A stretch of DNA of 20,000 nt, taken from Nitrospirota bacterium (GTDB taxonomy: Bacteria; JACPQY01). Positions 2,408-19,980 of this stretch are shown here, in pieces (position 1 is the stretch's first letter; each line of letters begins with the position of its first letter). The notes beneath the pieces are model-generated. The model did no database searches. It was not told the DNA's origin and was given only the letters and a program-made list of their open reading frames with translations. The translations under genes were made by a program, and so were the position numbers. Where the stretch lies: positions 112,214 to 132,213 of the forward strand of contig JACPAV010000016.1 of NCBI GenBank assembly GCA_016180645.1, read 5' to 3'.

Positions 2408-2435
2408 GACTGGGTGGCAGGATATCACAAATCCC

Positions 2436-2463
2436 TTGCAGCGCTTGGCCACTCGGCTAGAAT
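2436..2463 (+). promoter_or_regulatory. Putative sigma70 promoter of the channel gene
   Basis: TTGCAG (2436-2441)-16 nt-TAGAAT (2458-2463), followed by GGGAG and ATG 2490. Confidence 0.45.
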
Positions 2464-2489
2464 CGGTCCGGCATGGGAGTCCCACACCG

Positions 2490-5109: not shown

Positions 5110-5139
5110 GGAACCCTGCCGGCCCAGGAAATCTGCCTC

Positions 5140-5766
5140 CTACGGCAAATTCAACGAACCCCGAATCGCGCTCAAGGTTTCTGCCGGAGGGGTATGCAGG
5201 CCCTCAGATTGGTGGACGATTTCGCCCTTGGCGTTCAACACCGAGATCTTGTTGCTATGCGCGAAGTCCTTCTCTCCCATCCTGCGGATCTGGATGCCAA
5301 GGAGAGCTTCCAGCTCCAGCGTCTGGGCGGGCGGGCCTGTCAAGAACACCCAGGTTTTCACGGCGGAGCCGTTCTTCTTCTTGAATTCCGAAAGGCGGGC
5401 CGGCGTGTCGCGTTCCGGATCGACGGTCACGATCACGAAACGGACCCGGGATCGCTCCTTCTCGGTGAGGGAACGCGAAATGCGTTTGGCATCCTCGATC
5501 AGAATCGGGCAGGCCGACTCGCAATGCGTGTAGAGCATGAGGAGCACTACGGGTTTGCCCTCGAAGGATCGGAGCGTGACCGACTCCCCCTTTTCGTTGG
5601 TCCACTCCCCTTCCAGCCAAAAGACCGACTTGTCCGTCGGGGTCCCTCCGGCCGCCTCTCCGTGATGATGCGGGTGGGCCTCGTCATCCGCCGAGGTCCC
5701 GGGGGCAGCCGCGCCGGTGCACACCACGGCGACGACGAGCGAGAGGGCTACTCGTCTTTCGCGCAT
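5140..5766 (-). CDS. SCO1/SenC family copper chaperone
   Basis: Signal peptide, YTHCESACP (CxxxCP), VTVDPERDTP and FAHSNKI (His ligand). Start overlaps the end of the upstream nirV-like gene. Confidence 0.93.
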   Translation of the reverse strand: MRERRVALSLVVAVVCTGAAAPGTSADDEAHPHHHGEAAGGTPTDKSVFWLEGEWTNEKGESVTLRSFEGKPVVLLMLYTHCESACPILIEDAKRISRSLTEKERSRVRFVIVTVDPERDTPARLSEFKKKNGSAVKTWVFLTGPPAQTLELEALLGIQIRRMGEKDFAHSNKISVLNAKGEIVHQSEGLHTPPAETLSAIRGSLNLP

Positions 5767-6485
5767 CGGAAGCCGAGATTGTGAGTCCCGTACGACGCCT
5801 TCAAGCTGGAACGGAATGCGTAGCGCATGAAGGCGGCGTAGTCCGCCTTGTCCACGGCCTCCGAGGATGCCCCGCCGCAGTACAGATTTCGATCCTTGTC
5901 CGCATCCGATCGATTGTCGCCGCTGAGAAGGCTGGCGTTGAAATCCTCAACCCATTCCCAGAGACGATGGAAGTCGTGCAGGCCGAGGGCGTTCGAGGGG
6001 CCGGAGGCCACCTCCGCAAGCGGGCCCTCGTGCGGCATGGCGTACCAGCGAAGAACTTCATCGCGAGCGGCAGGATCTCCACCCGAGCCGGCCGATGCCG
6101 CATATTCCCATTCCATGGCCGTCGGCAACCTCTTCCCTTGGGCCGCACAGTAGGCCCTCGCCGCAAACCAGGACACCTGCGTAGCAGGCCGTCGTTCGGC
6201 CCCTGTGGGGATGGACACGTCGGTCACCCACTCGCGGAGGTAGTGCGTGTCACGAAACACGGACGGGGCGCGGTTCCGACTCCAGCGCGGATTCGCGAGC
6301 ACGAACTTCAGGAAATCGCCGTGCGTCACGGGAACCCGATCCAATAGGAACGATGGGATGCGAACCGACTCGATCGTCGTTTCCGGTCGGTAGAGTGGTG
6401 TGAACGTGCCGCCCGGAACGGGGGCCATGTCGGGGGCCACGAGTTCTGCCGCAGCAAGAAGAATCGCAAGCCACAGCTTCGACAT
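5748..6485 (-). CDS. nirV: NirV-like FGE-sulfatase (SUMF1) domain periplasmic protein
   Basis: Signal peptide; VSWFAARAYC...GKRLPTAMEWEYAA, WEWV and NLGFRCA are FGE-fold motifs; directly downstream of nirK. Confidence 0.82.
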   Translation of the reverse strand: MSKLWLAILLAAAELVAPDMAPVPGGTFTPLYRPETTIESVRIPSFLLDRVPVTHGDFLKFVLANPRWSRNRAPSVFRDTHYLREWVTDVSIPTGAERRPATQVSWFAARAYCAAQGKRLPTAMEWEYAASAGSGGDPAARDEVLRWYAMPHEGPLAEVASGPSNALGLHDFHRLWEWVEDFNASLLSGDNRSDADKDRNLYCGGASSEAVDKADYAAFMRYAFRSSLKASYGTHNLGFRCAKDE

Positions 6486-6494
6486 CGAAGAGTC

Positions 6495-7931
6495 CTACTG
6501 CTTCGCCCGCTCCTCGGCCACTTCTTCGGGTGTCACCATGTCGCCCTTGTTGCCCCAGGCATTTCGGACGTAAGTCAGAATAGAGGCGACATCTCCGTCC
6601 CCCAGATTGAGGCGGGGCATCTCGGCGTTGTAGTCCTGACCGTTTACCTGGATCGGGCCTTTCATGCCGTTGATGACGATGTGAATGCTCCGTGGTTTGT
6701 CCGCCAGGAGAAAGTCCGATTTCGCCAGCGGCGGGAACACGCCGGGTATCCCTTCGCCCGTGGGCTGATGGCACATGGAGCAGTTGTTGAGATAAAGCTG
6801 GTTTCCTTCCTGAATGCGCATGTCCCGGGTGAGCTGCTTGATCCGCGGGTTCGTGCGCTTTTCTTCCTCGATCTGGGCGCGGAGTTTTTCGACCTCCTCG
6901 CGGCTCTTGTCCCCTTCGGGCGCCTGAGATCCCAAGTACACCTCGTCCACCTCTTTGCCGGAGTAAATCGATTTATCCTCCGGCCCCGATACCTTCAGCA
7001 TGCCCAGCGTCCCTTTGTTGAACGTACGAAAAATCGAGTGGTCCACAAGGATAAACGTACCCGGCACTTCCACTTTGAATTCCACCATGGTGGAACCGCC
7101 CGCCGGTATGAGGGTGGTTTGGACCTGTTTCTGATTCGGAAGGATTCCGCCTTCGCCGTAGACGCTGTCGAAGATTTCGCCGATGACGTGGAACGAGCTG
7201 ATCATGTTCGGCCCGCCGTTCCCGAGATAGAGTCGCACCGTTTCACCCACATTGGCCTGGAGCGCTTTGTCGCCGACCAGAGAACCGACGGCGCCGTTGA
7301 ATACGATGTATGACGGATTCTCATCGATGCCCCGTTGCATGTCGAACGGTTGAAGTCCCTTCTCGCCGAAGTTTCCCCTGGTGTAGAAGTCTCCCTGCAT
7401 TACGTAGTACTCGCGGTTCACCTTCGGCATCCCTTCCTTCGGCTGCACGAGGATGAGGCCGTACATGCCGTTCGCCACGTGCATGGGAACGGGCGCGGTG
7501 GCACAGTGGTAGACGAAGAGACCGGGGTTGATGGCCTTGAAGGTGAATCGGGAGGCGTGGCCCGGCGCCGTGAACGAGCTTGCGGCGCCTCCGCCGGGAC
7601 CCGTCACCGCGTGCAGATCGATATTGTGCGGCATCTTGCTGCCCGGGTTGTTCTGGAGATGGAATTCCACGGTATCCCCTTCGCGGACTCGGATGAACTT
7701 GCCGGGCACTTTCCCACCGAACGTCCAGAACAGATATTGAACCCCGTCTGCCAGTTGGCCGACTTTCTCCACGACTTCGAGTTCAACCACGACCTTCGCG
7801 GGGTTCTTCCGTTCTATGGACGGCGGAACGAGAGGCGCGTCGGTCAGCACGGCCTTCTCAACGGGTAGCTCGGCGGCGGCAGCATTGTGCATCGCTGCGG
7901 TCACCAATACGAGTAGGAGCAGAAGTTTCAT
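6495..7931 (-). CDS. nirK: Copper-containing nitrite reductase (AniA-like) with C-terminal cytochrome c domain, 478 aa
   Basis: [29 protein letters not shown] and LVDHS supply the T1/T2 Cu ligands and catalytic Asp/His. C-terminal CSMCH...FPPLA...MP cytochrome c. GGAGG 6 nt before ATG 7931; Sec signal peptide. Confidence 0.97.
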
Positions 7932-7994
7932 GTCACACCTCCGGGTCATGGTTTCAGTTGGCCATTAGTGTCCGACCAAGTCAAGGATCGAAAT

Positions 7995-8008
7995 ATGACG
8001 ACGGTCAG
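7995..8008. promoter_or_regulatory. CRP/FNR-type box upstream of nirK
   Basis: ATGAC-GACG-GTCAG. Centre is 29.5 nt from a minus-strand GACACT (7972-7967), consistent with a -41.5 position. Confidence 0.7.
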
Positions 8009-8022
8009 TATCAGGTGTTGTG

Positions 8023-8078
8023 GGTAGCCGTAGGCTTCAGCCTACGCGCCGGACGCGGGCTGGAAGCCCGCGCCTACC
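8023..8078. repeat. GTAG-type REP doublet (REPIN-like)
   Basis: GGTAG-CCGTAGGC-TTCA-GCCTACG, 7-nt spacer, then an inverted unit with reverse complement GGTAG-GCGCGGGC-TTCCA-GCCCGCG. Same layout as 3853-3907. Confidence 0.8.
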
Positions 8079-8098
8079 AAGGGAAGGCCCTGAGATAC

Positions 8099-8141
8099 AA
8101 AACAAAAGGGCCGCCCCCTTGCATGCCCAAGGGAGCGGCCC
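8099..8141 (-). terminator. Intrinsic terminator after the nonaheme gene
   Basis: 14-bp stem 8108-8121/8128-8141 (one G-U on the minus strand) followed by TTTTGTTTT on the minus strand, 21 nt past the stop. Confidence 0.85.
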
Positions 8142-8162
8142 GGACTGATTGGAAAAGAAGGC

Positions 8163-10778
8163 TTACTTCAGGGCAGCGATGGACGCCTCGATTACGTCGA
8201 ACGTGAACGTCGGGTTGTGCACGCCTTCCCCGCTCCCGGCATGGAGCAGGAAGTAATTCCAGCCGGCCTTCACGAGGTTGTCCGTGGCGGCCACGACCGC
8301 CGTCTTGGCCGCGGAGTCCGAATAGAAATCGCCCAACTGGACCTCCAGTTTCGTCACGGGCATCGTATGGGCCGATTCACCCGTCGGTGTATAGCTCACG
8401 GTCACCGCAGTCTTGAGGTTGACGAAGAAGCCCTGCTGGCCGTGAGGCTCCGTCGCTTCCAGGGACGACACGTTGTCCTTGCTGATCGTCACCGCCGCAC
8501 TCTTCACGTCGTAGTCCTTGCCGTTGTACTGATGCGGCATGTAGTCCTTGACGTAAAACGTCGCCGGCAGCTTGGCGCTGAGATACGAGGCCATTTTGTC
8601 AGCCAAGGCTTTGAGGTCCTCCTCGGCGGCGCTTTGCAGCGTTTTCATTTGGACAAACGCATTGGTGTCCTTGTTGCCATGGCAGTTCGAGCAGATCTTG
8701 CCGTCCGCCTCGAAGGTGTGGTTCGTGCCCCTGCCCTGGTTGCTGAACTCCTTCGGCGGATCGGTCTGAACCATGTGGCAACTGGTGCAGGTGTCCTGGA
8801 TGTTCGCGTGTTTCGAAGGCACGCCCGTGCTCACCAGGTAGGCATTCTGCCCCATGAACACGTCGGCCTGGCAGGCCGCATGGGGCGCGGAGTAGGCCGT
8901 GACCGCGATCGAATCGTTACGCAGGCCGTTGCGTGAATTGTGGCACGTCATGCACAGCGCCCCGCTGCCCACACCTTTGGCCTGGAATCCGGAAGGCAGC
9001 ATGGCGGTGTCCCCTTCGATCCGGACGGTCGCCGTGTTCGGCTCGCCGGAGGTGGTACCCTGCGCGTGGGGATCGTGGCAGACCACGCAAGTCTGCGGGT
9101 GGACGCTGTCCTTGGTCATGCCCCACGATTTCATCTCATCCACGGTGGCATTGCCGTTGGCCCCCTGGATTTGCTTCGTCAGATCGCCCTGTTTGATCCA
9201 TTTGAGAAAGCCTTGTCCCGCGTGGCAGCGACCGCAGTGGGCCGCCGTGGCCTGGCGCCCTTCCACCGTAGCCTGCGCTTCGGCCAAGGCGTAGTCCGCG
9301 TGATGGCTCTCTTCCCACTGCTGATAGCGGCCGTGGCTCGGCGGCTCGCCGTGGCACGCCCCGCACACGCCGGAAGCGAGGCTTACGCGCTCGGGGTCGC
9401 TGACCTTGTTGTTATGGAGCGCGGTCGTATTCGGCCCGTGGCAGTTCTCACACTGGATGTTCGTCATCCGCGCCGTGGCCGGATACGTCGCCAGCATGGT
9501 GTCCCAATTCGTCGGTCTGGCCGTCCCGTACAGCTTCGCATCGATGAAGGTCTGGAAATCGGACGCCTCATCGATCCCGCCGTTCGCCACCTCCTTGTCA
9601 TAGCCGACGCCATGGCACTCCAGGCATGTTTCCTTATAGGTCGCCGAGGAGTTCAGATTGTTCGTAAAGATTTCGGCATGGCCCGATTTTTTCCACGGAG
9701 TGAACTTGTCCGGCGCGATGCTTCCGTTGTGACAGGACGTGCAACCGTCCGAATTCGGCCTCCCATCGGCGCCTCTGCCCGTGATCACACCCTGCCAGTT
9801 TCCGGCATAGATGTTTAGGGTCGTTCCCGTATTGTTTTCCTTGGCCACGTACTGGCCCGCTGTGTCCGGCGTGAAGGCTGGGTCCTGGCTGCCGGCATCG
9901 TCGAACGTTGCCGAGCCCCCCGGCGTGGTCAAGCTCCAGCTATACCCGCCTGCGTTCTTCTTGCCGTGGAGCAGCACGGGGATCCCAACCGGGACGTCTC
10001 CGATGCCGAGCGTGTGTTCAAACGCCGGTTTCGCCACGGAGACCTTGACCGTGCCCGAACCGCTCGTGGTCGAAGTTGTCACCGTCAGCTTGAGCGAAAC
10101 GGTGGTCGAGGAGCCCAAGGCATGCGGGTCGATCGCCTGGATCAACGTGCGATCCGGCACCTTCAGGCCGGATACCAGTTTGGCCTTTGCAGTCGCCGCG
10201 TCGGGCAGCGGAACCGTGACCGTGTCCGAATCCGCGCCCGAGAGGGCCACGTTCGGACCGTCGGTGATCGACCATTTGTAGGACAGGAGGCTGGAGCCGT
10301 CGAGAACTTCCACCCTGGCCGGGACTTGCACCGCCTCACCGAATTGGCCCGTCACCGCTTTGATTTCGATCCCCACTGGGTTCTCGGGCACGAGCTTTAC
10401 GGTCTGTGTGACGTCGCGGTCGGCAATGGCCGACATGACGACATCCGGAGAAGGGGCCTTGTAGAATGTCCTCTTGAGCTTCAGGACGTACGCACCGGCG
10501 GTCACTTCCTTTCTGAACTTCCCTTCGGCGTCCGTCTTCAGCGCGGCGGGGGCTGCCGCCTGGGCCTCGCCCGCCTTGGCCGCGGCGGGCGCCTCGAACG
10601 GCGGATCGGGAGTGATCTCCACGTCCGCCACGGGGTCCCCCGTGATGCTGTTGACAACCTTAAGCTCGATCGTCCCTTTCGTGAGTTCGGAGGCTGTGCA
10701 ACCCGCGAAGACCCAGAGGCCCGCCAGCATCAGGGCCAGGAACGAGAGCGCGACGTTTCGATCCGTGATGTACTTCAT
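8163..10778 (-). CDS. Nonaheme cytochrome c lipoprotein with N-terminal beta-sandwich domains, 871 aa
   Basis: Lipobox VFAG-C. Nine CxxCH: CTSCH, CLECH, CENCH, CGACH, CGRCH, CVVCH, CMTCH, CTSCH, CSNCH. N-terminal carboxypeptidase-regulatory-like/PKD-like segments (YKWS, YSWSL...PAFTPD..GQY). GAAAGGGG before ATG 10778. Confidence 0.93.
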   Translation of the reverse strand: MKYITDRNVALSFLALMLAGLWVFAGCTASELTKGTIELKVVNSITGDPVADVEITPDPPFEAPAAAKAGEAQAAAPAALKTDAEGKFRKEVTAGAYVLKLKRTFYKAPSPDVVMSAIADRDVTQTVKLVPENPVGIEIKAVTGQFGEAVQVPARVEVLDGSSLLSYKWSITDGPNVALSGADSDTVTVPLPDAATAKAKLVSGLKVPDRTLIQAIDPHALGSSTTVSLKLTVTTSTTSGSGTVKVSVAKPAFEHTLGIGDVPVGIPVLLHGKKNAGGYSWSLTTPGGSATFDDAGSQDPAFTPDTAGQYVAKENNTGTTLNIYAGNWQGVITGRGADGRPNSDGCTSCHNGSIAPDKFTPWKKSGHAEIFTNNLNSSATYKETCLECHGVGYDKEVANGGIDEASDFQTFIDAKLYGTARPTNWDTMLATYPATARMTNIQCENCHGPNTTALHNNKVSDPERVSLASGVCGACHGEPPSHGRYQQWEESHHADYALAEAQATVEGRQATAAHCGRCHAGQGFLKWIKQGDLTKQIQGANGNATVDEMKSWGMTKDSVHPQTCVVCHDPHAQGTTSGEPNTATVRIEGDTAMLPSGFQAKGVGSGALCMTCHNSRNGLRNDSIAVTAYSAPHAACQADVFMGQNAYLVSTGVPSKHANIQDTCTSCHMVQTDPPKEFSNQGRGTNHTFEADGKICSNCHGNKDTNAFVQMKTLQSAAEEDLKALADKMASYLSAKLPATFYVKDYMPHQYNGKDYDVKSAAVTISKDNVSSLEATEPHGQQGFFVNLKTAVTVSYTPTGESAHTMPVTKLEVQLGDFYSDSAAKTAVVAATDNLVKAGWNYFLLHAGSGEGVHNPTFTFDVIEASIAALK

Positions 10779-10922
10779 GGTGCCACCCCTTTCTGGGATA
10801 CCGTGACCCAGAGTGCAGCCCGGAAAGGGACGCACTCCGCATCGACCCGCGGAACGGAAGCCTCGATGGAGGTCTTCATCATTCATCGTGCGAATAATTC
10901 GCATACTCATCCGGCTGCTTGA

Positions 10923-10936
10923 ATGACTGCGATCAG
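10923..10936. promoter_or_regulatory. CRP/FNR-type box upstream of the nonaheme gene
   Basis: gaATGAC-TGCG-ATCAG; matches the boxes at 7995, 13863, 17386 and 19644. Confidence 0.65.
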
Positions 10937-10998
10937 CGGATTGAACGCAGCCGAAATGCAGCGCATGACACACCGTCACGGTCCCTGCGTTTTGGTCG

Positions 10999-11012
10999 CT
11001 GATTCAGATCAG
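10999..11012. promoter_or_regulatory. Possible second CRP/FNR-type box
   Basis: CTGAT-TCAG-ATCAG, perfect 5-4-5 inverted arms, 76 nt further upstream than the 10923 box. Confidence 0.45.
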
Positions 11013-11172
11013 GATGCGTTGGCCGTGCGGCGGCTGAAAAGTTTGGAACCGCGATCAATCATCACGCTTGGGCAGAGTTGAAGGATGTCTTCGCTCAGCA
11101 TTGGACCGAAACGTGAAGGGGCATGAAAAGGATGGGGAGGGCGGCCACCTCGACGGAATGTAAAAAGATCGC

Positions 11173-11209
11173 AACAAAGGAAATCCCCCTTCGCGGGAAG
11201 GGGGATTTC
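11173..11209 (-). terminator. Intrinsic terminator after the decaheme gene
   Basis: Perfect 13-bp stem GAAATCCCCCTTC-GCGG-GAAGGGGGATTTC (11180-11209) followed by CTTTGTT on the minus strand. Confidence 0.8.
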
Positions 11210-11251
11210 AGAGAGGCTGAGACTCTGGCGACGTGAGATCGCGGGTTCCGG

Positions 11252-13750
11252 CTATTCCTTCTCCCTCTTGTAAGGCGGTTTGTACGGGTCCCACACGTTG
11301 TGGACGGTGGAGACGGCGAACTCTTTGCCTACGCCGTGGCAAGTCCTACACGATTCCGCTTCGTCTCCGCTCCAGGCATCAGCCGGCGTGGGATCGACGG
11401 TCATCGCCGTGCCATGAGCGATGGCCGCATCGCCGTCGTGGCATGCCAGACATGCCAACCTTGATGGGTTCTCGTTCCACGAGTTGGTTTCGGCATGGCA
11501 CTTGGTGCAGTTGCGGATATCCTGCGGGAAGATGACGCCTGAGTAGTCTTCCGTGGCGTGGACTTCCTTGGGTTTGTCCAGGTAATGCCCGCGGTGTACG
11601 CCGTGGACGCGGCGAGCGAGGGGCGCCGAGCCAAAGCCCATGTTGCTGCGTCCCGCCGCGGCGTTGACGCCCCAGCCGTCCGCCGGATCCGTGGCCTGCC
11701 GCGCCGCCATCTGCCGCTTGTAGTCGTGGCAGCTCTTGCAGATGTCCGGATTGAACTCGACACCGAAATAGGTGGCGTGCATTCGAGTGTCCTCGTGGCA
11801 GGTCTTGCAGTTGGTGGCGATCTTCTTGTCCTCGGTGGCCGTGCCCACCTGGAAATTGAGGAGGCTCCATCCCATGAGGGGTTTGGCGCCGGCTTCGACC
11901 CAGACCGAGTACGTGCCCGCCCGGAGCCCCTTCGTGTTGTCCAGTTGATAGGTGATGGCCGTGGACGACCGCTTGACCTTGGGGTCCTCGTCCAGCGGGT
12001 CCGACATGACGCGGAAATCGTTGTTCGCGTAGGTGTGAGTATCCTTGTTGACGTTGACGCCCACCGTCCATTTCATGTTGGTCGTGACCGTGCCGGCGAG
12101 GATTTCGACCTCCGAGCCGGTCCCGATGGTGTTGCTCTTGATCAACACTTTGGACGCGCCACTGGATGATACTTTCGAGGCCGTGGCATAGGTTCCGATG
12201 CCGGTGCTCTTGTCGTTGAGCCAGGATACGACCTCGGCCTGCGTAGCCTTGGAGGCATCGGCAAACTTGGACGCCGATGCGGTGATCGTGAAGGGTCCTT
12301 TGTTGTCGATATCGATCATGAATGTGGGACTACCCGAGAGATCCCATGGCCCGTTGCTTCCGTTCGTGACGTTGGCGCGAACGTGCGCGGCCCCCCCCGC
12401 CGTCGTCGTCAACACCGGCTCCGTGCCCGAACGCGGTCCCGACACGAAAATGTTGGCCCGCGAGAACGACGTAGCCGTAATCGTGGCGGGGTCGATCACC
12501 GCGCCGGTCGCGGCGTCCTTTACCGTGACCGTGAGGACGGGCGCTTCATCGACGTAGTAGCTCCCGTTGGCCGGGGGCGTGAGGGCCAGCTCAACCTTGG
12601 TATTGAACGCCGGCGGTGGGACCTTGTGGGCTTCCGCAACGGACTTCACACCGCCCGTGTCCGGCGGGTGGCAGGTCGCGCAGTTCTTGTCGTCCGTCTG
12701 CACGCCGCCGCTCTGCCCGCCTTCGTGCCCACCGTGTTTCTCTCCCGTCGAGAAGTCGACGTGGTCATGGCAGGCGCCGCACGCCAGGCGCGAGGGTTTG
12801 GTTTTCCATGAGTCGTCCAAGTGGCATTTCGTGCAATTCCGGACGTCCGCGGGAAAGACGACTTCGGTGTAATCCTTGAAGTCGCCGTTCTTGGGATCGA
12901 TGTTCAACGGGTTTTCCAGCTCTTCACCCATGTGGACGCCGTGAACGCGACGAACAATATTATCGGGCACTTTATTGGCGGCGCTGCACGGGCTTTCCGT
13001 GCGGCTGGCGCAGTACGCCGCGTATCCTTCCTGGTTGTGGCAGTTCTTGCACGTGCGGACGGGGTCCGAGTCGATGGCCCAGCCTCCCGCCGGGTTCCTG
13101 CCGGTGGGGTCGGCATGGTGCAGATAGAATTTCCCGCTCAACGCGCCCTTGTGGCAATCGGCGCAATTCCCAACGATCTCCTTTTGCACGTCGGCCGTGC
13201 CGATCTGGACGTCCGCCAACTCGAAAGACTGGCTGAGGGCCTTGGCGGTGGCCACGCTGCGGAACCCCACCGTGTACGTGCCGGCCTCTTCGCTCGTAAT
13301 CGGCTGAAGCGTGTACGTGAGGACGTTCCCCTTCACGGTCAGGTCGGGGGCGGCCGCTTTCTTGAGATCCACATAGTGATGGAGGCTGCCTGCGGCGTCC
13401 CGATCCGTCGATGCGTTCAGAAGCGCCGAGGCCGTCTTGATCGTTTGGACGTTCTTGGGTCCGTACATATAAAGGCCCGCCGTGCTCAGATCGTCCAGCG
13501 TCAGCGGATTCTCCTTGTCGTCCATGACATTGAGCGTGACCACGATTCTCTCACCGGCGGCGAAGAAGGAGCCGTTCTTGGGTTGCGACGTGGAGAGAGT
13601 GACCGTGAGTCCATCCGATTTCGCGGCCGCCGCTCCAGGCAGCCCCTGCACGATCGTCTTTTCTTCCGTTGTGCATCCCAGCGCGGACATCGCCATCAGG
13701 AGGGCGAGACCGCCGAGAATGTTTGCAAGTTCATTCATAGTGTTTTTCAT
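11252..13750 (-). CDS. OmcA/MtrC-family decaheme cytochrome c lipoprotein, 832 aa
   Basis: Lipobox SALG-C. Ten CxxCH in a 5+5 arrangement (CADCH, CKNCH, CTKCH, CGACH, CATCH | CKTCH, CKSCH, CTKCH, CLACH, CRTCH), each block preceded by a heme-free beta-rich domain. Repeated RRVHGVH.G...FP.D.RNCTKCH....W...PSRLAC.ACH. SD AAAGGAG. Confidence 0.9.
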   Translation of the reverse strand: MKNTMNELANILGGLALLMAMSALGCTTEEKTIVQGLPGAAAAKSDGLTVTLSTSQPKNGSFFAAGERIVVTLNVMDDKENPLTLDDLSTAGLYMYGPKNVQTIKTASALLNASTDRDAAGSLHHYVDLKKAAAPDLTVKGNVLTYTLQPITSEEAGTYTVGFRSVATAKALSQSFELADVQIGTADVQKEIVGNCADCHKGALSGKFYLHHADPTGRNPAGGWAIDSDPVRTCKNCHNQEGYAAYCASRTESPCSAANKVPDNIVRRVHGVHMGEELENPLNIDPKNGDFKDYTEVVFPADVRNCTKCHLDDSWKTKPSRLACGACHDHVDFSTGEKHGGHEGGQSGGVQTDDKNCATCHPPDTGGVKSVAEAHKVPPPAFNTKVELALTPPANGSYYVDEAPVLTVTVKDAATGAVIDPATITATSFSRANIFVSGPRSGTEPVLTTTAGGAAHVRANVTNGSNGPWDLSGSPTFMIDIDNKGPFTITASASKFADASKATQAEVVSWLNDKSTGIGTYATASKVSSSGASKVLIKSNTIGTGSEVEILAGTVTTNMKWTVGVNVNKDTHTYANNDFRVMSDPLDEDPKVKRSSTAITYQLDNTKGLRAGTYSVWVEAGAKPLMGWSLLNFQVGTATEDKKIATNCKTCHEDTRMHATYFGVEFNPDICKSCHDYKRQMAARQATDPADGWGVNAAAGRSNMGFGSAPLARRVHGVHRGHYLDKPKEVHATEDYSGVIFPQDIRNCTKCHAETNSWNENPSRLACLACHDGDAAIAHGTAMTVDPTPADAWSGDEAESCRTCHGVGKEFAVSTVHNVWDPYKPPYKREKE

Positions 13751-13862
13751 GGGAAGACTCCTTTCTGAACGTGGGCCTCTGCCAGGGTCTTGTGGTGCGT
13801 CGCCGCATGTAACTTATCCGGTCTCACGCAGGGACTTTCGCATGGATCGCGCCCACCAATGA

Positions 13863-13876
13863 ATGACGGCGGTCAG
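13863..13876. promoter_or_regulatory. CRP/FNR-type box upstream of the decaheme gene
   Basis: gaATGAC-GGCG-GTCAGta; 13/14 identical to the nirK box. Confidence 0.7.
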
Positions 13877-13925
13877 TAGGGAAACTGCTGCAACTCGGTT
13901 ACAGTTAGAGCCCCTAACAGAATGC

Positions 13926-13994
13926 CGATTCGTAGGGGAGCATCTTCAGATGCTCCCTCTTGTCGGGAGGGTCTGAAGACCCTCCCCTACGCAT
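13926..13994. repeat. GTAG-type REP doublet, copy 1 (inverted copy at 19912-19980)
   Basis: CGTAG-GGGAGCATC-TTCA-GATGCTCCC, spacer, GGGAGGGTC-TGAA-GACCCTCCC-CTACG. Confidence 0.88.
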
Positions 13995-14013
13995 TCTGTT
14001 GGACGCTCTTAGA

Positions 14014-14868
14014 CTACGAGGCTGGACGGGAAGATTTGATGATGCCGAGTTTCTTGATGAGGCGCTGGAGCGTAACACGGTGAATGCCGAGTGCTTCGGC
14101 GGTATAGGTAACGTTTCCGCCGTGCCTCGCGAGCATATCGACGAGATAATTCCTCTCGTAGTCTCTGAGGACGGCGCGCCGCGCAGAGACACCGTCGGTC
14201 GTCCTCTCCATCGGACGTGGGATCGCTCCCCCCTTCCGGAGATCCTCCACCGTTATGACGGCTCCCGTGGCCTTCGAGACCGCCTTTTGGACGGCGGCGC
14301 GAAGTTCGGCCGAGTTACCGGGCCAATCCTGGTCGGCCAGGAGATCTAACGCCTCGTCCGAAAAACCCTTCACGCGCAGTTTGGGGTTTTCCTTTAGTAG
14401 TGCATCCAGAAAACGGACGGCGAGGTGTGGGATGATCTCCGGTTTTTCGCTCAAGGCCGGCGCGGGCTCCATGCGGCGAAGGAGATCCGCGTGCTCCTTT
14501 GCCTGGCGAGCGAGGAGGGCCGATCTCACTGCATCGACCAACTGATCGCCCGTAAAGGGTTTGGTGAGGTAATCCACAACGCCGCCCTTAAACGCTTGAA
14601 TGGCGGACTCCACGGAGGGATACGCCGTGATGAGGATCACGGGAAGGTCGGGCGCGACTCGGTGGGCCGCCTGGATGACGGCCTGACCTCCCCCGTTCGG
14701 CATACGGAGATCGGTCAGCACAAGATCCAGTTCCTCACGCTGGAGGATCGGTGCGGCTTCCTTTGGAGAAAGGGCGAGGAAGACCGCAAACTTCGCCCCT
14801 TCGAGCGCCTGCCGGCAACTCGCCAGCATGTCCCGGTCGTCTTCGACGATGAGGATGCGTTCAGGCAT
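14014..14868 (-). CDS. Response regulator: REC + remnant sigma54-activator lid subdomain + Fis-type HTH (no AAA+ core)
   Basis: REC motifs ILIVEDD, LVLTDLRMP, ITAY, DYLTKPF. Then directly EIIPHLAVRFL...GFSDEALDLL...WPGNSAEL and YERNYL...GGNVTYTAEALGIHRVTLQRLIKKLGI. Confidence 0.9.
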   Translation of the reverse strand: MPERILIVEDDRDMLASCRQALEGAKFAVFLALSPKEAAPILQREELDLVLTDLRMPNGGGQAVIQAAHRVAPDLPVILITAYPSVESAIQAFKGGVVDYLTKPFTGDQLVDAVRSALLARQAKEHADLLRRMEPAPALSEKPEIIPHLAVRFLDALLKENPKLRVKGFSDEALDLLADQDWPGNSAELRAAVQKAVSKATGAVITVEDLRKGGAIPRPMERTTDGVSARRAVLRDYERNYLVDMLARHGGNVTYTAEALGIHRVTLQRLIKKLGIIKSSRPAS

Positions 14869-14877
14869 CCGTTCTCC

Positions 14878-14926
14878 CTATCGAGGCTAAGCCTCTATAG
14901 TCGCCATAGAGGCTTAGCCTCGATAG
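14878..14926. repeat. Perfect 21-bp inverted repeat with internally palindromic arms (REP-like)
   Basis: CTATCGAGGCTAAGCCTCTAT-AGTCGCC-ATAGAGGCTTAGCCTCGATAG; each arm contains GAGGC-N3-GCCTC. Confidence 0.8.
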
Positions 14927-14934
14927 AAACCTCA

Positions 14935-16338
14935 TCAGGCACCTCCCAAGGGGATTCGCACGGTTACGGTGGTGCCGGAGCCGGACCGGCTCTTAATCCC
15001 CAGAGATCCACCGTGGGCGTTCACAATGGAATTGGAGATCGAGAGGCCGAGTCCCAACCCAAGTTCCTTCGTGGAGTAGAACGGCTCCGTGGCATGCCGC
15101 AGGGACTCCTCGCTCATGCCTTGTCCTGCGTCCGAGACGCTCAATACCAAACCCTCCCGTTCGGCGGCTGCCCGAACGACCACCTCGCCGCCCTCCGGAC
15201 TCGCATCGATGGCATTCGTCAGCAGATTGAACAGGACCTGCTGGATGCCCTGCTCATCCATCACCACCTCGGGCAAGTCCGGCGGGAGATCGGCTCGGAC
15301 TTGAATTCCCGCGAGACGGATCCGATCGTCCAGAAGTTCCAGACATTCACCCACCATGCCGGCGACCTTGACCGGGCGGGGCCGGAGGCCGTCGCTCTTC
15401 ATCGTGTAGCGCGCAAATTGAAGAAGTTTTTGGGTGGCCAACGTGGCCCGTTTCGAGGCCGTGCGAAGGCGTCGAATTTCTTCCGCGGCGCCTGAGTTGA
15501 ATTCCCCCGCCCTGACTCTCGAATCGAGGAACGAGGCATTCATGCTCATCACACCCAATGGGTTGTTGATTTCATGGGCGATGGTGGCGGAGATTTCTCC
15601 GAGGTAGGCCAGTTTCCTGGCCGCGTCGAGCTGACGGGTGCGTTCATCCAGGCGATCCATCAGTTCCTGGAAGCGCATCGCGATCTGCGAAGTCTCGTGT
15701 GTCTCCTCAAGCGAGTTCTTCCCCCCTGTCTTTTCGTCGAGAAAAACCGCCCGCTCGATGGCCCGATTGAGCTCCTCGATCGGCCGGGAAACGTAGATGG
15801 CGGTCAGGATGCCCGCGATGAGTCCTGCCGTCCCAATCCCGAGGAGGTATCTGCCCACCCGACCGATCAGCTTCCGGAGCGGTGCCTGACTGAGGCCGAG
15901 GCGAACGCGATAGCCTCGGCCGATCGATTCGTAGTCATAGACGTATTCGCCGTCCATTCGGATGAGGCGCACGGACACGTCTTCCCCTTTCACGGCTTCG
16001 TGCGGCACGGAGGCAAGGTCCCCCGGAATCCCCTTGGGGAACGTGCTCCAAAGCGGCCGGTTGTTGGAGTCCATGACCGCGATATAGCGGGTATCCGGCA
16101 TGGATCTCATCTGGCGCTTGAACAAATCCGAGAGACCCGCGAGGTCGTCATAGTAGACCAGCCGGGCGCATTCAGCCGCGACGGCCCGCGTGAGGTGGAG
16201 GCCCCGATCCCGGAAGAAATTCCGGGCGGAGGCATAAAGGAGGAGGCCCACCGTTGCGGAGATGACGGTCCCCCACATCATCGCGTATACAACGAATGTG
16301 AAGGAGATCCGAGTCCGGAGCCGGACGGGGTCCCGCAC
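14935..16338 (-). CDS. Sensor histidine kinase (2 TM, periplasmic domain, HAMP-like linker, HisKA, HATPase_c; NtrB-like)
   Basis: H-box IAHEINNPL, N-box QVLFNLLTNAIDA, G1 DAGQGM, F EPFYSTK, G2 GLGLGLSI. GTG start overlaps the upstream stop by 1 nt. Confidence 0.95.
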   Translation of the reverse strand: MRDPVRLRTRISFTFVVYAMMWGTVISATVGLLLYASARNFFRDRGLHLTRAVAAECARLVYYDDLAGLSDLFKRQMRSMPDTRYIAVMDSNNRPLWSTFPKGIPGDLASVPHEAVKGEDVSVRLIRMDGEYVYDYESIGRGYRVRLGLSQAPLRKLIGRVGRYLLGIGTAGLIAGILTAIYVSRPIEELNRAIERAVFLDEKTGGKNSLEETHETSQIAMRFQELMDRLDERTRQLDAARKLAYLGEISATIAHEINNPLGVMSMNASFLDSRVRAGEFNSGAAEEIRRLRTASKRATLATQKLLQFARYTMKSDGLRPRPVKVAGMVGECLELLDDRIRLAGIQVRADLPPDLPEVVMDEQGIQQVLFNLLTNAIDASPEGGEVVVRAAAEREGLVLSVSDAGQGMSEESLRHATEPFYSTKELGLGLGLSISNSIVNAHGGSLGIKSRSGSGTTVTVRIPLGGA

Positions 16339-17333
16339 TATTTCCCGCCTTTAAGATAGGCATCCACCCTCTGATGAATCTCTCTCGCGGAATCGTAGAG
16401 GCCCGGTGCGGGAGCTTCGAATCTCAGGACCCCCATCGCCTCCAAGGCTTTCCGGCCTCTGGGAACCTGGTCCATGATCAGAAAGGCTTTCTGGAGCCGG
16501 CCCCGAAGGTACGGATTCATACTTGTCGGAACGACCACAGGCGGTGCGCCAAGAGGGGGAGACGTGTCGAGGACGCGGACCTCGGCCCGCAGGGAAGGAT
16601 TGCGTTGAATTTCGCGCTGGTATGCGCGGCTGTGAACGGCGGCGGCATCGGCCATCCCGCTCGCCACGGCCTCCAGACTCCCATCGCTGCTGTTTGTGAA
16701 CGTGGTTCGTGAAAAAAAGCCCCGAGGTTCGATGCCAAGACCCAGCAGACGGAACAACGGGTAATAGTAGCCGGCCATGGAGAGCGTATCGGTGTAGGCG
16801 AAGGAATAGCCTTTGAGATCCTCGACCGTTCGGGCGGGCCGGTCGGCGCGGACGATGATGAGGGCGTGATAGACGGGCCCTTCTTCATAGACAGGGACCG
16901 CGATATTCTCGATGGGCAGATCGACCTCCTCGGCGCGAATGTAGGCGCCCGGGCAGAGCAAAGCCGCCTGCACGGCGCCGTTTCTCAGCAGCTCGTTCAC
17001 CTCGCCGTGCGTCTTCTGCTGGATCAATCGAACCGGGTGAGAGAGCCGGTTTTCGAGGTAGGCGGTCAGAAGCTCATAGTTCTGCGCCGTCCTGTTGGGG
17101 GAAAGAATGGGACCGATCGCAACTCGGTAGGGAGGGGTTTCCGCCCCGTTGGGGACCATGGCGGAGGAATCCAGCCGAACTTCGATCGCCCGCTCTCCGA
17201 GATTTGCGAGAGGCGCGACGGCCAGAAGGATACCCAATCCCACGACCGAGAGAGCGAGGACAAGATGCCGGCGCCGGAGCCCGCTCCATTTCGCTGCAAG
17301 GACGGTGAATGAAGGAATCACCGGGATTCGCAC
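16338..17333 (-). CDS. PhnD/SsuA-family (phosphate/phosphonate-type) periplasmic binding protein, probable sensor accessory
   Basis: N-terminal hydrophobic anchor; YHALIIVRAD...VEDLKGYSFAYTDTLSMAGYYYP and AVASGMADAAAV typical of PhnD-like proteins. Coupled to the kinase; no ABC permease or ATPase nearby. Start uncertain. Confidence 0.88.
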   Translation of the reverse strand: MRIPVIPSFTVLAAKWSGLRRRHLVLALSVVGLGILLAVAPLANLGERAIEVRLDSSAMVPNGAETPPYRVAIGPILSPNRTAQNYELLTAYLENRLSHPVRLIQQKTHGEVNELLRNGAVQAALLCPGAYIRAEEVDLPIENIAVPVYEEGPVYHALIIVRADRPARTVEDLKGYSFAYTDTLSMAGYYYPLFRLLGLGIEPRGFFSRTTFTNSSDGSLEAVASGMADAAAVHSRAYQREIQRNPSLRAEVRVLDTSPPLGAPPVVVPTSMNPYLRGRLQKAFLIMDQVPRGRKALEAMGVLRFEAPAPGLYDSAREIHQRVDAYLKGGK

Positions 17334-17357
17334 CGCCGCCTCGTTCCCATGCCTTCA

Positions 17358-17399
17358 AAGCTACGTGTCGGGGATGCTCAGGAACATGACGGAAGTCAT
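17358..17399 (-). promoter_or_regulatory. Class II CRP/FNR-type promoter of the binding protein-kinase-regulator operon
   Basis: Perfect ATGAC-GGAA-GTCAT (17386-17399); minus-strand -10 TAGCTT (17363-17358) places the box centre at about -41.5. Confidence 0.7.
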
Positions 17400-17435
17400 A
17401 TTTGGCGCCGCAGGGAAGGGCGGAGCGGCAGCCGG

Positions 17436-17471
17436 AAAAAGAAGCGGCAGGCGGGGAAGCCCGCCTGCCGC
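17436..17471 (-). terminator. Intrinsic terminator after the octaheme gene
   Basis: Perfect 12-bp stem GCGGCAGGCGGG-GAAG-CCCGCCTGCCGC (17444-17471) followed by TTCTTTTT on the minus strand. Confidence 0.9.
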
Positions 17472-17498
17472 ATAGGGTTACGTTGCGCTCGCTACTTC

Positions 17499-19526
17499 TC
17501 AGTCTCCGCTCAATCTCTTATTCTCGTGGCAGGCGCCGCAGGCGTTCGGCATGATGTCCGTATCCTTCCCGCCCGATGCTTTCTTGAGGGCGCTGGAGGT
17601 TTCGTACTTGATCACGTCGAACACGTGGGAGGCTTGGTCACCCGAAACGAGGGCCGTGTTGCCCGCCGCATCCTTGCCGGTGGTGTAGCCGCCGGACTTG
17701 GCCGTCTTGGCCATGTGGCACGAGGAACAACGGCCCACAGGTTTCGCGTCATTCGTCGGATCATACGTGGAGCCCATGCCCGGAACCTTGTCCTTCATGT
17801 GCGCTTTCACCGCATCCGCCACGGCCGAGCTCGATCCCCCGCCGGCAGCCAGTGCCGTGTGATTCTTTTCCGCCTTGCCTCCCGCGGCGATGTGGACCTC
17901 GGCCACGTCTTCTTTCGTAAGCGAGGCATACGGAGCTTCACCGGCGTGGCATGTCAGGCACAGGGTATTGTTCTTGTGGCTCGGACTCAATAGGGCGTAC
18001 TCGTCCTTCCCGACCTCCTCCTCAAGCTCCTTCGGACCTTGATAGAGCGAGTGGACGTTGTGGCAGCTCGCGCAGGTCAGCTTCTCCTTCGAGTTGGCCC
18101 AGTGCTTGGAGTAGCTCAGCATCGTGTATTGCTGGCGGTGGGCCAACCCGTGTTTGCCGTCCGGCCACGCATTGAAGGCGCCGCCCTCAGCAGACGTCAC
18201 GCCGAAGCCTTTGATGTAGTCCTTGAGATCGTAGACGCCCGCCACGAAGGCGCCATTGCCCAACTTGGACGCATTCGCCAGGTTGTAGGCGTATCCATGG
18301 ACTCCCGACGGGTCTTTGCTCTTTCCATCGTCGCCTGAGTGGCACATTCCACAGACTTGGTTCTCTCCCAGAGCCGTCAAGTTGCGGGGTGTGATGATGG
18401 TGAGTTTCCTGTTCTCAGTCGTCGCGGCCAGGTGTTCCGAGCCGGGACCGTGGCACACCTCGCAGGTGATGTTCATGTCCTTGTAGCTGTACGCTTCCGT
18501 GTAGTTCTTGCCGGAGGCCGCTTCTCGCGTGAGCTCCATGCCGGTGTTATGGCAGCCCGCACACTGACGGGAAAACGTGCGGCCTCGATCGGCCCATTCG
18601 GTTTCCTTGTAGGCGCCGGTCTTCGGCGCACCGTCTCCGGACTGGGTGATTTGCACCGGCAGGATGAGATAATCCTTGTCCTTTCCGGAAGTGTATGTCC
18701 ATGAGGACGCGAGAGGAACGTCAGAGAGTTTGGCGAGGAATCGCTGTTTGTACTTTCCGAAATTGGGCTTGTTCGCGATACCGCCATCGCCCTCGCCGCC
18801 GTAGGTTCCCGAAACCGCTATGAACGTGCCGTCGGTCGTGACCGTGCAATCCGCCGTTCCTCCGAACTTCATCTGGTAGTCGCCGGCCGTGGGCTGACAG
18901 AGGACCACGGCAACTTGGGCCGCCTTGGTCGGATCAGCCGTATCCTTGGCTCCGGTCGGATCCATGGCTTTGATTTTGGAGTCGATGGTGGCGCCCACCG
19001 TGGGCCATTTCTCGAGGCTGATCATGCGCGATTTGTCGGTCGTGATCGAGACGGCGTGAGGGGCCCCGCGTTCCTCGGCGTCCTGAGTTTGATGGCAGGC
19101 GGCGCACTGGGTCCCGCCGACGTATTTGGCCGAATCGGAAGGCCGGGAGGAAAGCGTGATCGTCACCGACTCGGAGGGTTTGCCGTCCTCTCCAATTTCA
19201 ATCGCATGGCGGGTTTCACCGGCGAGGTAGGAGGCGCTTGGCGCGGCGACTTTCAGAAAGGCTTTCCCTGCGCCCACGCCTTCAAGAGCGAACGCGCCAT
19301 TGGCGTCGGTGATCGCGGAAGCCGCCTGACCCTCAACCGTCACCGCGGCGCCTTCGATGCCCTTGCCCGCGGCGTTCTTCACGAAGAATTCGAGCTTCTT
19401 CGTTGTGGTGGTGGTCGTCGTGGTGGTTGTTTCCTTGTCCCCCCCGTCGCATCCGGTCGCGGCGAGCATGGCCGCGATGAACAACGGGGTCATCCCGCGC
19501 AGGGCATTTCGAGCAAGCATACTCAT
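17499..19526 (-). CDS. Octaheme cytochrome c lipoprotein with poly-Thr tether and carboxypeptidase-regulatory-like domain, 675 aa
   Basis: AAGGAGG 7 nt before ATG 19526; lipobox AATG-C; ~10 consecutive Thr. Eight CxxCH: CAACH, CAGCH, CEVCH, CGMCH, CASCH, CLTCH, CSSCH, CGACH. Confidence 0.93.
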   Translation of the reverse strand: MSMLARNALRGMTPLFIAAMLAATGCDGGDKETTTTTTTTTTKKLEFFVKNAAGKGIEGAAVTVEGQAASAITDANGAFALEGVGAGKAFLKVAAPSASYLAGETRHAIEIGEDGKPSESVTITLSSRPSDSAKYVGGTQCAACHQTQDAEERGAPHAVSITTDKSRMISLEKWPTVGATIDSKIKAMDPTGAKDTADPTKAAQVAVVLCQPTAGDYQMKFGGTADCTVTTDGTFIAVSGTYGGEGDGGIANKPNFGKYKQRFLAKLSDVPLASSWTYTSGKDKDYLILPVQITQSGDGAPKTGAYKETEWADRGRTFSRQCAGCHNTGMELTREAASGKNYTEAYSYKDMNITCEVCHGPGSEHLAATTENRKLTIITPRNLTALGENQVCGMCHSGDDGKSKDPSGVHGYAYNLANASKLGNGAFVAGVYDLKDYIKGFGVTSAEGGAFNAWPDGKHGLAHRQQYTMLSYSKHWANSKEKLTCASCHNVHSLYQGPKELEEEVGKDEYALLSPSHKNNTLCLTCHAGEAPYASLTKEDVAEVHIAAGGKAEKNHTALAAGGGSSSAVADAVKAHMKDKVPGMGSTYDPTNDAKPVGRCSSCHMAKTAKSGGYTTGKDAAGNTALVSGDQASHVFDVIKYETSSALKKASGGKDTDIMPNACGACHENKRLSGD

Positions 19527-19616
19527 AGTCACGCCTCCTTCATCAGCGCACGATTGGGCCCGGCTTCGTACCGGTGCCGTGTCGATGTTTCCAATGATTC
19601 CTGAAATCACGCGGGG

Positions 19617-19657
19617 AGTGTAACCGACACGCAGCAGGCGAGAATGACGCCGGTCAA
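19617..19657 (-). promoter_or_regulatory. Class II CRP/FNR-type promoter of the octaheme gene
   Basis: gaATGAC-GCCG-GTCAA (19644-19657); minus-strand -10 TACACT (19622-19617) places the box centre at about -40.5. Confidence 0.7.
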
Positions 19658-19911
19658 TGAGATGCCTGAAACTTCAAGTGAATCAGATGCGTTACTTCAG
19701 AACTGCTGCAATACAGCATCAGCCATGGATCAACGTTGAGAACTTCACATAACCTGTCTTTATCACTTGATCATGCTATCGATACTCATCACTGGATCTG
19801 TCCAGGCATCGAGATGGATGGAATGAGTGATGCACTATCGCAGCAGCAATGCCCCGATCCGGGTCCTAAGCTCGACTTTTGCCATTTTTTGAAAGGTTTA
19901 TGTTGGTCATG

Positions 19912-19980
19912 ATGCGTAGGGGAGGGTCTTCAGACCCTCCCAACAAGAGGGAGCATCTGAAGATGCTCCCCTACGAATCG
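19912..19980. repeat. GTAG-type REP doublet, copy 2 (inverted relative to 13926-13994)
   Basis: Reverse complement of 13926-13994 with a single mismatch over 69 bp. Confidence 0.88.

Follow-up and report, generated by a model that had tools for sequence, protein, structure and literature searches.

What is the operon of a copper nitrite reductase doing in line with three large multihaem lipoprotein cytochromes and a three-part sensor system? The question is posed by a 20-kb stretch of contig C11 (hereafter the window, meaning this stretch at its full length) in the genome of a Nitrospirota bacterium (G000; 4.7 Mb, 97% complete). Nine consecutive genes, all on the minus strand, lie there between positions 5140 and 19610 by the listing of open reading frames (ORFs) and by family scans. 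A first-pass annotation, made from the letters of the window alone, had described them as co-oriented genes for three lipoprotein cytochromes with 8, 10 and 9 haems, a NirK fused to cytochrome c, NirV, SCO and a three-part sensor; the CXXCH counts and lipobox-like signals agree with those haem numbers, and the family scans return the same gene list. As to what unites these genes, the answer that we put forward, and to which we give an even chance, is that the window would hold the distal portion of an island of respiratory genes, in a diderm lineage from groundwater that has been little sampled, and that this island would be a toolkit of anaerobic electron sinks working in parallel under shared control, gated by FNR and tuned by sensors. 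That the host is a diderm is plain from its Omp85/BamA matches. The data neither favour nor rule out a direct link from the cytochromes to nitrite reduction. The genes, by position, are the following.

5140-5766, minus strand: sco, the last gene of its operon, a SCO1/SenC copper chaperone of 208 amino acids (aa) with a CESAC (CxxxC) motif (PF02630, 80.7 bits).
5748-6485, minus strand: nirV, a NirV-like FGE-sulfatase-domain protein of 245 aa (PF03781, 113.6 bits).
6495-7949, minus strand: nirK, a three-domain copper nitrite reductase with a C-terminal cytochrome c (RpNiR type); its start may be the ATG at 7931.
8163-10778, minus strand: cytA, 9 CXXCH motifs and an FAGC lipobox-like motif; 871 aa from the likely start at 10778, the ORF extending to 10979.
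11252-13750, minus strand: cytB, 10 CXXCH motifs and an ALGC lipobox-like motif; 832 aa, OmcA/MtrC-like.
14014-14868, minus strand: R2, a response regulator of 284 aa with a receiver, an AAA lid and a Fis-type helix-turn-helix (HTH) domain (PF00072, PF25601, PF02954).
14935-16338, minus strand: S2, a sensor histidine kinase of 467 aa with HisKA and HATPase_c domains.
16338-17333, minus strand: X2, a PhnD-like, membrane-anchored periplasmic binding protein of the ArrX/AioX family.
17499-19526, minus strand: cytC, 8 CXXCH motifs and an ATGC lipobox-like motif; 675 aa from the likely start at 19526, the ORF extending to 19610; OcwA-like.

All three cytochromes have a signal peptide with the lipobox-like motif at its end. 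The longest ORFs need correcting for cytA and cytC, whose likely starts fall inside them; a Shine-Dalgarno-like purine-rich run and a signal peptide are found at each.

Three strong intrinsic terminators, together with the overlaps and gaps between the genes, divide this array into at least five transcription units: cytC; X2-S2-R2; cytB; cytA; and nirK-nirV-sco. The sco and nirV ORFs overlap and 10 nt separate nirK from nirV; similarly, the kinase gene overlaps that of the binding protein and is followed by the regulator gene after 66 nt. These separate units share an upstream box, as the first-pass annotation had correctly seen. The palindrome TGAC-N4-GTCA has 4 occurrences in the window where 0.29 would be expected (none of 200 shuffles has as many), and all four copies fall in the spacers ahead of nirK, cytB, the sensor operon and cytC. 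The control elements (boxes and short repeats are given without strand) are these.

7996-8007: box TGACGACGGTCA before nirK, its centre 52.5 nt before the ATG at 7949 and 70.5 nt before that at 7931.
8108-8141, minus strand: intrinsic terminator after cytA, with a 14-bp stem (11 GC pairs) and a T tract.
10999-11012: variant box CTGATCTGAATCAG (TGAT-N4-ATCA) before cytA, 227 nt upstream of the likely start.
11180-11209, minus strand: intrinsic terminator after cytB.
13864-13875: box before cytB; this box and its flanking blocks align with those of the related genome G001 (see below).
13883-13893: 11-mer TTGCAGCAGTT, 8 nt further upstream of the cytB box.
17387-17398: CRP/FNR-type box before the X2-S2-R2 operon.
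17444-17471, minus strand: intrinsic terminator after cytC.
19645-19656: box before cytC, 124.5 nt before the ATG at 19526.
19701-19711: second copy of TTGCAGCAGTT, upstream of the cytC box.

The 11-mer occurs 4 times in the genome, two of the copies being those just upstream of the cytB and cytC boxes, and a GCAGC block aligns at the matching place ahead of the G001 cytB; we regard it as a candidate site for the triad regulators.

Over the whole genome there are 83 exact sites for the box, and 24 of these lie outside ORFs of at least 150 aa, a space that makes up 7% of the DNA (binomial p = 1.4e-9). One of the two interpretations offered by the first-pass annotation, a co-induced anaerobic respiration toolkit, fits this picture of separate units under a common CRP/FNR-type box. 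The same box precedes a cluster of 9-, 11- and 16-haem genes on contig C60, a cytochrome cluster on C3, a 4-haem gene on C19 that heads a cluster with an 11-haem NHL-repeat protein, a ccsA-like cytochrome-c assembly gene, a universal stress protein (Usp) gene, and a CRP/FNR-family gene on C24 (249 aa; 49 nt from its start). It also precedes a type II DMSO-reductase-family gene, C28:21033-24638. The product of the latter is a NarG/Nxr-like protein of 1164 aa, encoded beside aa3 oxidase genes, that scores 321 bits with TIGR03479 and 162 bits with narG, both under the cut-off; it may supply NirK with nitrite.

Which regulator might read the box? The Crp-type HTH family has six matches over the cut-off in G000, and four of the six proteins carry C-x2-C-x5-C near the N terminus, which is the spacing of the iron-sulfur ligands of E. 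coli FNR; the C24 regulator, whose own gene is boxed, scores best against Fnr and FixK. Because of this cysteine motif and the genome-wide placement of the sites, we read the box as an FNR-type anaerobic switch, and we infer that an FNR-like protein binds it and activates transcription in anoxia. The FNR/ANR/DNR regulons of denitrifiers and metal reducers are built on TTGAT-N4-ATCAA boxes. The system described here resembles them in its palindromic 5-4-5 box placed 40-125 nt before starts, in the FNR cysteine motif and in the boxed regulator gene, but its half-sites are TGAC/GTCA instead of TGAT/ATCA, it has four paralogs, and it joins nirK with surface-type cytochromes, in G000 only as far as seen.

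Contig C11 stops where the window stops, which truncates the island. It probably continues, judging from gene content and order, on contig C60, with a molybdoenzyme and membrane cytochromes; the first-pass annotation recognized the island from the window, and this probable continuation lay outside its view. Contig C60 ends 225 nt past a full X-S-R triad, which follows a molybdoenzyme (913 aa) exported by twin-arginine translocation (TAT), an ArrB-like Fe-S subunit (184 bits) and a TorD-like chaperone. Divergent from these, across a box, are genes for a 9-haem DmsE-like protein, an 11-haem protein fused to cytochrome b (CbcL-like) and a 16-haem NrfH/NapC-type protein, with an Acr3-ArsC fusion beside them. 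In G001, the sole same-family genome among the listed relatives (84% complete; every other relative belongs to the same domain only), the block equivalent to C60 runs straight into cytC. The ends of C60 and C11 overlap by 71 nt with 1 mismatch. This overlap was considered as proof of the join and discarded, being repeat throughout (its first 26 nt have 8 copies in the genome).

Taken together, these elements suggest the following scheme. One of the four FNR-like regulators, of [4Fe-4S] type, would bind the box, so that falling oxygen would induce all of the units. The CbcL-like and NrfH-like membrane cytochromes of C60 would draw on the quinol pool and feed periplasmic carriers, which in turn would supply the lipoprotein cytochromes and, via its cytochrome c domain, NirK. 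The latter would reduce periplasmic nitrite with its own tethered cytochrome c and the maturation partners NirV and SCO, while the three lipid-anchored cytochromes would serve as terminal or near-terminal electron outlets. Each cytochrome gene would stand, now or ancestrally, under its own ArrX/AioX-type triad, as is still the case three times in G001; with one triad per cytochrome gene, FNR would provide the anaerobic gate and the triads a substrate-specific one. Nitrite reduction and electron disposal through the cytochromes would then be parallel sinks with common regulation and a common electron supply, with no dedicated wire from donor to NirK.

The nitrite reductase itself appears quite conventional. 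It exceeds the curated equivalog cut-off (TIGR02376, 360.7 bits versus 296.3), and its residues 32-483 align with residues 18-458 of chain 3ziy_A (expectation value, E, 1.5e-190) and with 2zoo (E 8.1e-187), which we take to be the enzymes of Ralstonia pickettii (RpNiR) and Pseudoalteromonas haloplanktis, respectively. The C-terminal class I cytochrome c (PF00034, residues 380-465) has its CSMCH at residue 390. By these matches NirK is an ordinary RpNiR-type enzyme, and a cytochrome-fused NirK with NirV and SCO is an ordinary set. The likeness to the three-domain enzymes spans the full length, including the C-terminal cytochrome, and the enzyme itself shows no difference of note; it is the neighbours, multihaem lipoproteins and an ArrX-type sensor, that differ.

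How firmly, then, are these neighbours linked to nirK? Contig C25 of G001 has the same gene order as the window, with identities of 70% for cytC, 72.5% for X, 72% for S, 59% for R, 61% for cytB, 74% for cytA, 77% for nirK, 57% for nirV (also behind nirK) and 49% for sco. In that genome there are three X-S-R triads, one ahead of each cytochrome gene; a GH106-like lipoprotein gene precedes the second triad, and cytA and nirK are separated by genes for a TAT protein and a GMC oxidoreductase. Relaxed boxes are present ahead of SBP1, cytC, the GH106-like gene, cytB and cytA, the one before cytA being CTGATACCTGTCAT. Outside the family the linkage was surveyed at cytA- and cytC-family loci, the neighbourhoods of the cytB family being left out. 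There nirK is found at 0/75 cytA-family genome loci (63 with at least 3 kb downstream of the match), at 0/80 metagenome loci of the same family (31 with at least 3 kb downstream) and at 0/13 cytC-family loci from 12 genomes; nirV, sco and the binding protein are likewise at none of these 168 loci. The search for conserved synteny proposed by the first-pass annotation thus gives a divided result, the order being kept in the only same-family genome and nirK being absent from all 168 loci elsewhere. A full-text literature search found no description of nirK clustered with such multihaem cytochromes, nor of ArrX/AioX-type sensors beside multihaem cytochrome genes.

These data bear directly on a wired pathway, in which the surface cytochromes would be reduced by Fe(II), reduced humics or partner cells and would deliver the electrons inward to the cytochrome c of NirK, giving a lithotrophic nitrite reduction. 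In its favour, nirK is the next gene after cytA in the window and is close to it in G001, nirK and the cytochromes have boxes in common in G000, the tethered cytochrome c of NirK needs a haem-protein donor, and cytB and cytC resemble surface cytochromes. On the other hand, nirK is missing from the 168 loci of other lineages, the units are separately terminated, and in G001 cytA and nirK are parted by the two unrelated genes just named, for the TAT protein and the GMC oxidoreductase, with no box at nirK; the quinol-dehydrogenase-type cytochromes of C60 also fit an outward flow of electrons and not an inward one. Moreover, the MtrB/PioB porin (PF11854) was found in neither G000 nor G001, although other barrel families were not searched, so that the first-pass annotation's suggestion to look for an MtrAB/PioAB conduit came up empty in both genomes. 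Its other interpretation, extracellular donors coupled to nitrite reduction, is therefore left with no specific support (nirK linkage in G001 only, 0/168 elsewhere, no MtrB/PioB), and we consider the wired pathway improbable. A separate observation touches on the outer membrane: on C19, after a box and between the small multihaem gene and the 11-haem NHL-repeat cytochrome, there is a 651-aa ORF without any Pfam match (C19:8014-9969), which is a candidate outer-membrane partner.

What, next, might the sensor perceive? The first-pass annotation had noted a three-part sensor; the triad is there, but its identity as an oxyanion system of ArrX/AioX type had gone unrecognized. X2 matches ArrX (PDB 6x6b) at E 4.2e-42 and AioX (6esk) at E 2.4e-26, phosphite and phosphonate binders being far poorer. 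In X-S-R systems, AioX, ArxX or ArrX is the periplasmic component that acts first, and molybdoenzymes of arsenic metabolism are switched on through a sigma-54-dependent regulator; the three proteins have in common the pocket residues numbered in AioX as Tyr88, Cys106, Tyr131, Ser161, Ser163, His192 and Asp210 (PMC5908839). At these seven positions, mapped to the AioX numbers from the residue spacing in an alignment with ArrX, the proteins read as follows.

ArrX (reference): Y, C, Y, S, S, H, D; 7/7.
G000 paralog on C60: as ArrX; 7/7.
Window X2: H, C, Y, S, A, S, H; 3/7.
G001 ortholog of X2: H, C, D, S, A, S, D; 3/7.
G001 third paralog: Y, C, T, S, I, H, N; 4/7.

X2 and its G001 ortholog share three changes (Tyr to His, Ser to Ala, His to Ser), which argues for a conserved new pocket and against decay. 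The regulator is altered as well: the family scan gave no PF00158 match, that is, no sigma-54 ATPase core, for R2, and its G001 ortholog, aligned over 278 contiguous residues (59% identical), lacks the core too, whereas the paralog R1 on C60 has PF00158 and the full domain set. Sigma-54 promoters before the cytochrome genes were also looked for and rejected (TGGCAC-N5-TTGC with up to 2 mismatches: 14 sites versus 17.6 expected, none in the relevant spacers). By its family matches, then, the window sensor is an ArrX/AioX arsenic-oxyanion-type system with a remodelled pocket. Its ligand is probably an oxyanion, though neither arsenate nor arsenite, and its target is probably a sigma-70-type promoter. 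It shares with AioXSR, ArxXSR and ArrXSR the X-S-R order, with a clear family binding protein followed by a kinase and an NtrC-type regulator; it departs from them in keeping 3/7 pocket residues, in lacking the sigma-54 ATPase and any sigma-54 promoter signal, and in preceding a multihaem cytochrome gene instead of a molybdoenzyme. Among ArrX/AioX-family loci in other lineages, a molybdoenzyme or Fe-S subunit is near 6/18, and ORFs with at least 3 CXXCH occur at 2/18, so a triad that serves a multihaem cytochrome is unusual. Within the 66-nt spacer between kinase and regulator lies a perfect palindrome (14878-14926; 21-nt arms, 7-nt loop). Public contigs show a raised depth there and differ by 1-nt indels at 14901 and 14905, and the palindrome seems to belong to a second family of repeats.

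Given this parentage, the whole island could instead be centred on arsenic, with the cytochromes linking the Arr/Arx-like molybdoenzyme of the probable upstream half to other redox partners and all of the triads reporting arsenic species; anaerobic arsenite oxidation feeding NirK, or arsenate reduction drawing on the cytochromes, is one possible form of it. The binding proteins do belong to the ArrX/AioX family, and the C60 copy of X retains the 7/7 pocket, behind the molybdoenzyme, the ArrB-like subunit, the TorD-like chaperone and the Acr3-ArsC fusion, in a block that in G001 is contiguous with cytC. The window X2, however, has the 3/7 pocket with the same three changes in its ortholog, and the third G001 copy differs again, which indicates that the paralogs have diverged in the ligand site. 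In addition, the molybdoenzyme is far under the ArrA cut-off (116.5 versus 1600 bits), the join of C60 to C11 is unproven, and nothing links the enzyme directly to NirK. An arsenic-centred island thus seems unlikely to us.

The cytochromes themselves belong to three large families spread over many phyla and represented mostly by metagenome genomes. The cytB family has 532 relatives at E<=0.001 among 8000 scored, from metagenome genomes of Chloroflexi, Verrucomicrobia, Planctomycetes and Myxococcales; the cytA family has 1207 on the same terms, many of them named 'carboxypeptidase regulatory-like', and the cytC family 230. CytB is the most readily placed. Its ten haems are arranged 5+5 (CXXCH at 196, 234, 306, 324, 357 and at 648, 671, 748, 767, 801), PF22113 (MtrC/MtrF domains II/IV) matches two stretches (92.2 bits), and MtrF (3pmq) is matched at E 9.4e-8. 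In the 5+5 arrangement, the two domain II/IV matches and the lipoprotein signal cytB is thus like the OmcA/MtrC/MtrF proteins of Shewanella; it differs in falling below the curated TIGR03507 cut-off (186.8 versus 209.3 bits) and in a genome, G000, where their porin partner was not found.

CytA is weakly similar to cytC (E 3e-4) and consists of tandem Ig-like/PKD stalk domains, a multihaem core and a C-terminal alpha/beta domain. Its structural model has a mean predicted local distance difference test score (pLDDT) of 65; it is below 50 across most of residues 443-707, that is, most of the haem core, and confident outside it, where three tandem Ig-like domains stand behind the lipid anchor and the C-terminal domain closes the protein. 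Foldseek gave Ig-like tandem-domain proteins only, which leaves the haem core unclassified, and sequence and profile searches of solved structures found no solved relative for it (best NrfA, E 0.05). CytA would represent a widespread Ig-stalked 9-haem family; its three Ig-like domains, like the OcwA and S-layer fold matches of cytC (below), speak for surface-type proteins. The Gly-Arg cassette GG[VI]RG of this genome's giant lipoproteins is present in 0/13 window proteins.

CytC has its best match, in both sequence and fold, in OcwA, with a haem core of the c554/NrfA/MccA type. A phmmer search against OcwA (6i5b) gives E 5e-10 and the family profile E 1.6e-20; the same profile also matches cytochrome c554 (E 1.9e-6). 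The model (pLDDT 82.7, predicted template modelling score 0.81) has 6i5b as its top Foldseek match (E 1.7e-10; template modelling score 0.49, normalised to the target), and further fold matches are the Carboxydothermus S-layer undecahaem cytochrome (6qvm) and MccA. OcwA is a nine-haem cell-surface terminal reductase of Thermincola potens. Two of its haems have an open coordination site below His-His motifs, and in vitro the protein reduces hydroxylamine as well as nitrite, the latter at a slow turnover of 1 per minute (PMC6703420). CytC departs from it in having 8 CXXCH where OcwA has nine haems, an N-terminal lipid anchor, a poly-Thr linker, a CarboxypepD_reg domain and a diderm host. It also has His-Arg in place of the distal His-His of OcwA haem 2 (one profile alignment with an inferred residue-number offset); the second His-His motif is unaligned. 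In the linker (residues 27-48 of the 675-aa form), right at the lipid-anchor Cys, CDGGDKE is followed by ten consecutive Thr, and the G001 ortholog has CGEDDEETTE; this acidic, Thr-rich segment may have a role in sorting or glycosylation.

This kinship raises one more alternative, that cytC and perhaps cytA face the periplasm as OcwA/c554-like enzymes that remove nitric oxide (NO), hydroxylamine or nitrite, standing in for a missing NO reductase beside NirK. Indeed, NorB, NosZ (two models), NrfA and Hcp were found in neither genome. The members of PF00115 in G000 are aa3-type and cbb3-type oxidases only, and the cbb3-type enzyme is much closer to solved cbb3 oxidases (E 4e-53) than to NorB (E 1.7e-6); the search for nor that the first-pass annotation had proposed thus leaves NirK without a known NO reductase, flavohaemoglobin and flavodiiron proteins being outside the search. 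The profile matches of cytC, the open haems and in vitro activities of its homolog, and the His-Arg at haem 2 are all points for such an enzyme. Against it, the nitrite turnover of OcwA is slow, the relatives of cytA and cytC elsewhere are not beside nirK, the His-Arg reading depends on a single alignment and offset, and the search for NO-removing enzymes did not extend to flavohaemoglobin or flavodiiron proteins. Furthermore, cbb3 oxidases may deal with NO. We find this alternative quite unlikely.

The integrity of the assembly also needs consideration, in view of its repeats.

13926-13994, no strand: a 69-nt REP-like (repetitive extragenic palindrome) element of two nested hairpins; a second, inverted copy lies at 19912-19980 and is 99% complementary.

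The genome contains 105 exact copies of its 20-nt core, and 19 of these lie no more than 200 nt from a contig end. Public contigs have a depth of about 100x over the element, which is chiefly responsible for the breaks in the G000 assembly. Public contigs from four DNA runs of one study, of which three may be the source of the genome, cover 5000-13943 and 13980-19894 with 0 differences, stop at the repeats, and bridge neither the 13926-13994 repeat nor the contig end. Contig C68 of G001, which is 99.93% identical to C11:126118-132154 (cytC and X2-S2-R2), was considered as a second assembly of this stretch and rejected. At the REP element its sequence changes to one that is 90% like G000 C14, and it is most likely a chimera or a cross-binned contig with no bearing on gene order. 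Beyond sco, on the opposite strand, are a homolog of cyclic-nucleotide-gated K+ channels (2328-3833, plus strand; Ion_trans and cNMP_binding) and an AAA/DUF4143 ATPase (3967-5109, plus strand), both apparently unrelated to the island.

Returning to the toolkit of parallel sinks, several observations weigh against it. We infer the co-induction of the units from DNA motifs only; four FNR-like paralogs are predicted, and any or none of them may be the binder of the box. The box of cytA is a variant, 227 nt from the start, and in G001 the 116 bp ahead of nirK contain no box, so that only G000 gives a sign of control shared by nirK and the cytochromes. Between R2 and cytB the assembly runs across the roughly 100-copy repeat that independent contigs leave unbridged, and the join of C60 to C11, resting on G001 synteny and repeat-bearing ends, is probable and not proven. 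The orientation of the lipoproteins matters too. If they face outward, the route for electrons across the outer membrane would be missing, as no conduit was found in the search for MtrB/PioB; if they face the periplasm, an 'outlet to minerals' would be wrong. CytC has an Asp at +2 after its lipid-anchor Cys, which in E. coli means inner-membrane retention, although this rule comes from E. coli and may not be that of this lineage.

Every single part of the locus belongs, on its domain and profile matches, to a known family. What appears to be new is the assignment of ArrX/AioX-type triads to multihaem lipoprotein genes; the conserved remodelled pocket with a predicted sigma-54-less regulator; and the placing of triads, cytochromes and NirK behind one putative FNR-type box in a barely sampled lineage in which no NO reductase was found. 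A bolder version, which we judge rather unlikely, is that the arsenic-oxyanion sensor has multiplied in this bacterial family into paralogs with differing pockets, one per lipid-anchored cytochrome, that these pick the electron outlet or inlet according to the dissolved or mineral-released oxyanion met, that the cytochromes exchange electrons with NirK, that oxidation of arsenite, Fe(II) or another donor drives nitrite reduction, and that an OcwA/c554-like cytochrome disposes of the NO. For the nitrogen cycle, the genome adds one more NirK-only organism and leaves the fate of NO in a groundwater lineage as a question. The three cytochrome families abound in uncultured Chloroflexi, Acidobacteria, Myxococcota and further groups, and their inducers and substrates are almost unstudied. 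With the FNR-type box as an oxygen gate and the ArrX/AioX-type protein as a second gate, whose ligand can be found in vitro, a recognisable sensor for each gene offers a handle on the natural substrates of these widespread environmental cytochromes and, if the assignment is true, would extend the ArrX/AioX family beyond arsenic and beyond molybdoenzymes.

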